Shown: positions 23,134 through 23,230 of the stretch, piece after piece
Numbering within the stretch: the first letter of the stretch is position 1
Layout: every line of letters begins with the position of its first letter
IMG/VR virus record: IMGVR_UViG_2541047745_000011
Span: 1-43,359 of that record
Length of the DNA: 43,359 bases
Origin: a virus
Taxonomy: Duplodnaviria; Heunggongvirae; Uroviricota; Caudoviricetes
Reading direction: 5' to 3' (one strand)
The notes under the pieces: generated by a model
The model's database searches: none
What the model saw: the letters and a program-made list of their open reading frames with translations, nothing else
Told to the model about the DNA's origin: nothing
Program-made: the position numbers and the translations under genes

Positions 23134-23159
23134 GCAAAAAAGCCCACAGGAGGTGGGCT
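23134..23159 (-). terminator. tR'-like rho-independent terminator downstream of the late promoter
   Basis: Minus-strand AGCCCAC-CUCCU-GUGGGCU followed by UUUUUUG. Confidence 0.55.
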
Positions 23160-23200
23160 TGTGATGGTTGCTGAATGCAAAAGCAGCAGCATATGTGAAT

Positions 23201-23230
23201 ATTATGGCTAAATGGCTAATTGCATGTCAA
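23201..23230 (-). promoter_or_regulatory. Candidate late promoter pR' (-35 TTGACA, 18-bp spacer, -10 CATAAT)
   Basis: Minus-strand TTGACA (23225-23230) and CATAAT (23201-23206) immediately after the Q stop codon, about 60 nt upstream of the tR'-like hairpin. Confidence 0.45.

Follow-up and report, generated by a model that had tools for sequence, protein, structure and literature searches.

A predicted phage 21/Sf6-type late-gene control unit behind an IS100-interrupted Q gene in a lambdoid prophage

The Q-binding element (QBE) consists of two directly repeated 8-bp subsites, each of which is occupied by one Q protomer, and Q-loaded complexes pass successive terminators (10.1101/651190). For phage 21, GenBank record OL657228 annotates the -35 box, the upstream and downstream subsites (QBEu, ATTGAGCA; QBEd, AATGAGCA), the -10 box, the start site, the sigma-dependent pause element (SDPE) and the terminator, citing PMID 31455742, 31663818 and 1704887. 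The phage 21 QBE sequences used here were taken from this annotation and from the text of PMC6606751. Substitution of the C:G pairs at positions -21 and -13 impairs Q21-dependent antitermination, and the residues of Q21 that contact the DNA have been named (PMC6606751). The Q proteins of phages 21 and lambda have no similarity in sequence or fold beyond the helix-turn-helix (HTH), and lambda needs an extra -35-like element that is absent in other lambdoid phages (PMC6606751).

Here we analysed a stretch of 43,359 nt (record IMGVR_UViG_2541047745_000011, positions 1 to 43,359), referred to as the window, whose minus strand carries a promoter and a terminator at the 3' end of a Q gene. An earlier note on this DNA had compared the pair to the pR'/qut/tR' unit of lambdoid phages. 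This comparison was supported, as the region aligns with the phage 21 cassette at the Q 3' end and has lysis genes downstream, but the unit is of the phage 21 and not of the lambda type. The elements identified point, with a probability of roughly 0.9, to the pR'-QBE-SDPE-leader-tR' late-gene control unit of a phage 21/Sf6-type lambdoid (P22-like) prophage. Such a unit is already known: the cassette is present and largely annotated in public phage records. Its sequence anatomy, its register, its homology and its conservation were observed directly and are described below. The earlier note did not mention the Q-binding repeats, the pause element, the IS100 element in Q, the HNH gene in the leader or the second terminator.

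Promoter, Q-binding repeats and first terminator

The features of the unit and of its surroundings are listed in Table 1.

Table 1. Features of the predicted late-gene control unit and flanking genes in the window; negative and positive numbers under Remarks are relative to the inferred start (+1)
Feature	Position	Strand	Remarks
Q, N-terminal part (codons 1-83)	25685..25437	-	ends at IS100; last 5 nt (25441..25437, GCATC) are a copy of the target duplication
IS100 (IS21 family), 1954 bp	23483..25436	+	inside Q; istA, 340 aa; istB, 260 aa
Q, C-terminal part (codons 84-172 and stop TAG)	23477..23208	-	contact positions R95, R113, A124, T125, R127, N128
-35 TTGACA of pR'	23230..23225	-	-36..-31; aligned with annotated phage 21 -35
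QBEu, predicted upstream Q-binding subsite AATTAGCC	23221..23214	-	-27..-20, C at -21; aligned with phage 21 QBEu ATTGAGCA
QBEd, predicted downstream Q-binding subsite ATTTAGCC	23213..23206	-	-19..-12, C at -13
-10 CATAAT	23206..23201	-	-12..-7
Inferred transcription start, A	23194	-	+1, by alignment with annotated phage 21 start site
Predicted SDPE TATGCT (-10-like)	23193..23188	-	+2..+7; aligned with phage 21 TAAGCT(G)
Predicted 5'-proximal leader hairpin	23191..23169	-	+4..+26; by folding
tR' hairpin, stem AAGCCCAC, loop CTCCT, stem GTGGGCTT	23160..23140	-	two-hairpin leader type
tR' with U run	23160..23136	-	U run to +59
HNH_3 + AP2 endonuclease gene	23013..22501	-	inside late leader, between the two terminators
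Second leader/terminator GTAAGCTGCCGTTAGTGACTCTTAAGTTGCAACGGTGGCTTTTTT	22496..22452	-	identical to leader and tR' of phages 21, Sf6 and HK75
Pause-like hexamer TAAGCT of second unit	22495..22490	-	
Long hairpin of second unit	22494..22456	-	
U run of second unit	22457..22452	-	
Lysis cassette	22009..20897	-	
Holin	22009..21806	-	
Endolysin (lysozyme)	21834..21331	-	
Rz/Rz1	21346..20897	-	

A promoter scan and direct reading of the minus strand agreed on the near-consensus promoter that the earlier note had placed across the Q 3' end, TTGACA and CATAAT separated by an 18-nt spacer. It matches the consensus at 11/12 positions, and neither strand of the 43-kb window has a second site that scores 11/12 or better. 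Taken by itself the promoter lacks significance, because dinucleotide shuffles contained on average 0.58 matches of this quality (at least 11/12); a promoter of such quality together with such a terminator within 120 nt was found in 0/200 shuffles. The stop codon of Q (TAG) is located at 23210..23208 on the minus strand, and therefore the -35 box is inside the last Q codons and the -10 box just past the stop. A caveat to the position after the Q stop codon that had been given for the unit is that the Q gene in question is itself split by IS100.

Alignment with OL657228 showed that all elements of the phage 21 cassette, i.e. the -35 box, QBEu and QBEd, the -10 box, the start, the SDPE and the terminator, are in register in the window. 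The repeats AATTAGCC/ATTTAGCC span positions -27..-12, and their core differs from that of phage 21 at 2/6 positions. QBEd, which includes the stop codon of Q and extends into the first base of the -10 box, is invariant in all 79 related loci that have the promoter (of 80 loci).

The QBE repeat TTAGCCATTTAGCC recurs with 2 mismatches at three more sites of the window, 1445..1458 (minus strand), 20255..20268 (plus strand) and 26509..26522 (plus strand), so that matches total 4 against 0.33 expected in shuffles. These three sites have neither a promoter nor a pause element in their context; they were rejected as parts of the system and are probably due to chance.

The terminator hairpin reported earlier, AGCCCAC-CUCCU-GUGGGCU, was recovered with a stem of 8 bp and a loop of 5 nt. 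Its U6 tail has to be amended, since six T residues follow GTGGGC, which gives GUGGGCU plus U5 (or GUGGGC plus U6). For the 61-nt leader the folding energy is -21.5 kcal/mol (z = -3.4), and the terminator hairpin is part of the minimum-energy structure. Both Q and a "rho-independent terminator" are annotated at the corresponding positions of phage HK629. In locus L024 and in Hafnia phage yong1 the tR' stem is kept and the loop altered, and a G-C pair is changed to G-U in locus L009. Locus L042 (IMGVR_UViG_2537562173_000011) has a window-type leader that breaks off in the terminator stem (AAGCCCACC, then unrelated sequence), which suggests a rearrangement or insertion removing tR'.

The leader, counted from the inferred start through the last base of the U run (23136), measures ~59 nt. 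The lambda leader is 194 nt long. The leader is indeed much shorter than lambda 6S RNA, as claimed before, and does not correspond to the ~190-nt 6S leader of the lambda type. It does not represent a departure from known systems though: the phage 21 leader is ~50 nt long (start 1731, terminator end 1780 in locus L004, OL657228), and those of other relatives range from 47 to 72 nt. Given the ~50 nt of phage 21, a leader much shorter than that of lambda is the rule in the Q21 family and not a novelty.

The interrupted Q gene and its repeat specificity

IS100 lies within Q and is flanked by a 5-bp target duplication, GCATC (23478..23482 and 25437..25441). Its terminal inverted repeats are imperfect, IstA has an rve domain, and an E. 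coli plasmid carries a copy, annotated as IS100, with 100% identity to the insertion element. The IS100/Q junction is present in no complete E. coli genome, and an exact search of a one-genome-per-species set did not find it either. Removal of the element and of one duplication copy yields a rejoined Q of 172 aa. This protein matches PF06530 (Phage_antitermQ, Q21 family; E 1.3e-25) and also PF06576, and no Pfam match to the Qlambda family was obtained for it. Comparison with the Q21 structures PDB 6JNX/6P18 gave an E value of ~1e-91. Overall identity with Q21 is ~85%; residues 1-102 contain 3 differences, and the C-terminal third has diverged.

The IS100 insertion cuts Q behind codon 83 and ahead of the DNA-binding helices, so that the prophage would be unable to activate its own late operon. 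As read from its sequence, the switch appears to be intact in cis and to be without a cognate activator in the window genome. The late genes should stay off unless a Q protein with matching DNA specificity is provided in trans; rescue would be possible only by a co-resident Q with TTAGCC specificity.

The C-terminal Q fragment also contains the sequence TTGCGTGGCTTTGC (23401..23414, plus strand), which fits the CII-binding consensus TTGYN6TTGY. It is found at the position of the annotated CII site of the antisense promoter paQ in the phage 21 record. Over the entire window this consensus shows no enrichment (9 matches, 12.4 expected).

The repeats and the Q protein were compared among eight Q21-family phages from six host genera: 21, Sf6, SE1, Hafnia yong1, Edwardsiella GF-2, a Providencia phage, HK639 and a Klebsiella phage (loci L002, L004, L005 and L086-L090 for the comparison of Q residues and repeats). 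All eight have a TTGACA-like -35 box at or overlapping the Q end, a spacer that contains two 8-bp direct repeats, a -10 box, a TAnnnT sequence at +2..+7 and, next, an intrinsic terminator. Folding divided the leaders into two architectures. One-hairpin leaders of 47-50 nt, in which the long hairpin is the terminator, were found for 21, Sf6, SE1 and GF-2; two-hairpin leaders of 59-72 nt, in which a 5' hairpin precedes a separate compact terminator, were found for the window and for the Hafnia, Providencia, HK639 and Klebsiella phages. The counterparts of the 5' hairpin in these latter four were predicted from individual folds. The terminators of distant family members were likewise compared fold by fold, the MAFFT alignment of the hairpins not being structure-aware.

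In the Q alignment, residues S93, R113, T125 and R127 are invariant, and all four are among the contact residues named in PMC6606751. Residues 95 and 128 vary together with the repeat core. Phages 21, SE1, Hafnia, HK639 and Klebsiella have H, Y or I at position 95, R at position 128 and the core TGAGCA or TGAACA; the Providencia phage combines L95 and R128 with TGGCCA or TGGACA, and GF-2 combines R95 and R128 with TGAGCC. In the window and in Sf6, R95 and N128 go together with TTAGCC. Thus, in every phage compared the second position of the core is G with R128 and T with N128, and the last base is A with H, Y, I or L at position 95 and C with R95. This co-variation is in favour of the QBE assignment and, indirectly, of the predicted binding of Q to the QBE and read-through. 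A further suggestion is that the DNA specificity of the window Q is distinct from that of Q21, a comparison that involves a handful of lineages, and that residues 95 and 128 constitute a two-position recognition code and a specificity switch in Sf6-type Q.

Leader modules, the HNH gene and the distribution of the unit

The second leader copy in the window lies 8 nt past the stop codon of the HNH gene, and the sequence after its terminator is HK75-like. This second terminator folds at -20.2 kcal/mol (z = -4.4). The late leader would thus hold two terminators in series, with the HNH gene between them. Further downstream, between Rz/Rz1 and the next ORF, a hairpin resembling an intrinsic terminator is present at 20866..20846 (minus strand; 9 pairs, 6 of them G-C, and a T run); it would be one more read-through site for Q-modified polymerase. 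Below the lysis genes, minus-strand ORFs located at 1295..19225 encode products of 471, 732, 297, 417, 153, 472, ... 665 and 706 aa. These sizes resemble the terminase-portal-scaffold-coat-...-tailspike block of P22/Sf6-like phages, and judged by ORF lengths only the prophage is probably P22-like.

Across Q, promoter, leader, terminator, HNH gene and second terminator, the window region is 99.0-99.4% identical to HK629 (JQ182735), and PhiR12 phages show 100% identity over promoter, leader and terminator. The promoter together with the window leader is present in 41/5426 complete E. coli genomes, among them EPEC E2348/69. Sf6, HK75, CUS-3, ST64T and many P22-like Salmonella phages share the promoter block as far as the last base of the -10 box. 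The block is annotated in the Sf6 record as "nearly identical to phage 21 late promoter; P R'", alongside a qut site and tR', and in the HK75 record as pR' with Tr'.

The region is a mosaic, in which similarity to Sf6 and HK75 ends exactly after CATAAT. These phages continue with the phage 21-type leader TAGAAGG-TAAGCT-GCCGTT...AACGGTGGC-T6, and the window continues with ATTCACA-TATGCT-...-AGCCCAC-CTCCT-GTGGGCT-T5. Hafnia phage yong1 has the window leader type behind a phage 21-like QBE (ATTGAACA/AATGAGCA).

The leaders of the 80 closest Q loci from IMG/VR were surveyed. The 21-type leader directly follows the promoter in 59/80 loci, the window leader type does so in 20/80, and the promoter was not found in one. 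Among the 20 loci with the window leader type, 16 have, as in the window, a second 21-type terminator 705 nt after the -10 box; no second terminator was detected in three, and the window-type terminator is disrupted in one. In two of the three (L024 and L035), HK75-like sequence directly follows the window-type terminator. Relative to HK75 the window contains ~705 extra bp (23201..22497), and relative to L024 ~684 extra bp (23144..22461). An HNH gene placed between the two terminators, as in the window, is also found in HK629 and in 16/80 of the IMG/VR loci. Other loci carry either leader type without the HNH gene. The distribution suggests that the HNH gene is a mobile or homing cassette.

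A broader reading may be put forward tentatively, and taken as a whole we consider it improbable rather than likely: the late leader would be a hotspot of recombination and homing. According to this joint proposal, Q21-family leader-terminator modules would be swapped between the invariant QBE/-10 block and the GGCTTTTTT of the terminator, and a free-standing HNH-AP2 gene would have lodged between two alternative modules. The HNH cassette might have brought or kept a pause element of its own at +2..+7, by which Q loading would be preserved; the endonuclease would be made only after Q action and might cleave leaders without the HNH gene in order to spread. As part of the same proposal, the specificity of Sf6-type Q would have been re-targeted, with R95 recognising the final C of TTAGCC and N128 its T. 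A published account of lambdoid mosaicism (PMC9836094) does not discuss Q or qut.

Late switch, alternatives and comparison with known systems

In Stx phages, the pR' transcript that ends at tR' is an sRNA that binds Hfq, and short late-promoter RNAs have been noted for phages 21, 82, phi80 and P22 (PMC7547250). The promoter-terminator pair of the window might similarly be the gene for a constitutive, StxS-like trans-acting sRNA of ~59 nt, besides or instead of a late switch. With Q dead in the window such a short RNA would be the sole product, and the predicted leader RNA, with its 5' hairpin, its single-stranded middle and its terminator with a U tail, has a fitting shape. Rfam provided no match though, neither for the whole window at gathering thresholds nor, apart from a chance-level match on the opposite strand to an unrelated Pseudomonas sRNA (E 0.35), for 22400..23300 at E values up to 1. 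No seed or target was evident. Moreover, phages that are otherwise identical have an unrelated 21-type leader in its place, which speaks against a conserved function in trans, and as functional phages have the identical sequence, nothing points to host-specific selection. We regard an sRNA gene as a very unlikely explanation of the pair.

The least probable explanation, which we regard as almost negligible, is that the terminator only ends the early-right (Q) operon, that the promoter, a single 11/12 match in 43 kb and not significant by itself, is a chance match and that the true pR' is located downstream at ~23048..23043, in line with a "putative late promoter pR'" annotated in HK629 ~100 nt downstream of the terminator (L001 1935..1940): the hexamer annotated there reads TCTACG, its position has no QBE repeats or pause element, a scan between the terminator and the HNH gene found no sigma-70-like site, the promoter upstream can be aligned with phage 21 pR' and corresponds to the pR' annotated in Sf6 and HK75, and the QBE repeats are kept in 79/80 related loci. 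The "putative pR'" of HK629 was accordingly rejected as late promoter; by homology with phage 21, Sf6 and HK75, pR' corresponds to L001 1753..1782, and the HK629 annotation is probably mistaken.

For the preferred Q-dependent late switch we infer start site, pausing, Q binding and Q-dependent read-through in the window from the homology to phage 21, which leads to the model below. A point against it is that the window leader and terminator belong to a variant common to HK629 and Hafnia phage yong1, which is not homologous to that of phage 21 and for which a literature search found no experimental record. Sigma-70 RNA polymerase would start constitutively at ~23194, and sigma region 2 would re-bind the -10-like TATGCT at +2..+7, causing polymerase to pause. 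Two Q protomers, bound to the repeats, would load onto the paused complex, where Q would form a nozzle at the RNA-exit channel and terminator hairpins would be blocked. In the absence of Q, transcription would stop at ~+59 and generate a short leader RNA. In its presence, polymerase would read through tR', the HNH gene and the second terminator (22494..22452) into the lysis and morphogenesis genes.

As a discovery this unit, a textbook Q-dependent late switch, carries little weight. Its practical value is that it marks the start of the late operon in the annotation of the window, and the IS100 insertion in Q explains why the P22-like prophage is probably locked out of late-gene expression. By-products of the analysis are the apparent two-position recognition code relating Q to the repeats, the two leader architectures and the probable mis-annotation of pR' in HK629. 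Of modest interest are the knockout of Q by IS100, the tandem terminators around the HNH gene, the interchangeable leader modules and the apparent recognition code.

Among the described systems, StxS (pR' of Stx phages) is a short RNA from a constitutive late promoter, which in lysogens ends at tR' (PMC7547250), as is predicted for the window. It differs in belonging to another Q clade and in having a 258-nt pR'-tR' region from which 74 nt remain after processing, and it has been shown to bind Hfq and to activate rpoS (PMC7547250). The logic proposed for the window is also that of lambda: a constitutive promoter follows Q, a Q-binding element lies between the -35 and -10 boxes, polymerase makes a sigma-dependent promoter-proximal pause, and a short RNA is terminated unless Q brings about read-through (10.1101/651190, PMC6606751). 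The Qlambda family, however, is unrelated to Q21.

The PR' regions of the Sf6/HK75/ST64T type, found in P22-like and HK97-like phages, agree with the window completely or almost completely in Q and in the promoter/QBE block, as far as the -10 box reaches. There, the 21-type leader comes directly after the -10 box, whereas in the window the other type comes first and the 21-type leader ~700 nt further. HK629 and PhiR12 have an intact Q, unlike the window, and the PhiR12 phages diverge from the window ~68 nt into the HNH gene.

With phage 21 (PDB 6P18, 6P19, 6JNX, 6JNY) the window shares the Q family, the TTGACA -35 box, two direct 8-bp repeats between the boxes (C at -21 and -13), the overlap of the repeat with the first base of the -10 box, a start 7 nt after the -10 box, TAnGCT at +2..+7 and an intrinsic terminator within ~60 nt, followed by lysis genes. 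The differences concern details of each element. The repeat core is TTAGCC in the window and TGAGCA in phage 21, which is matched by H95R and R128N in Q; the spacer is 18 nt long instead of 17 nt, and the -10 box CATAAT is better than the AACACT of phage 21. The window Q has a C-terminal extension of 10 aa relative to Q21, because of which its gene overlaps the promoter. Finally, the leader and terminator downstream of the -10 box are not homologous: the window leader has two hairpins in ~59 nt and its terminator is not followed by tRNA genes, whereas the phage 21 leader consists of one long hairpin in ~50 nt and tRNA genes do follow.
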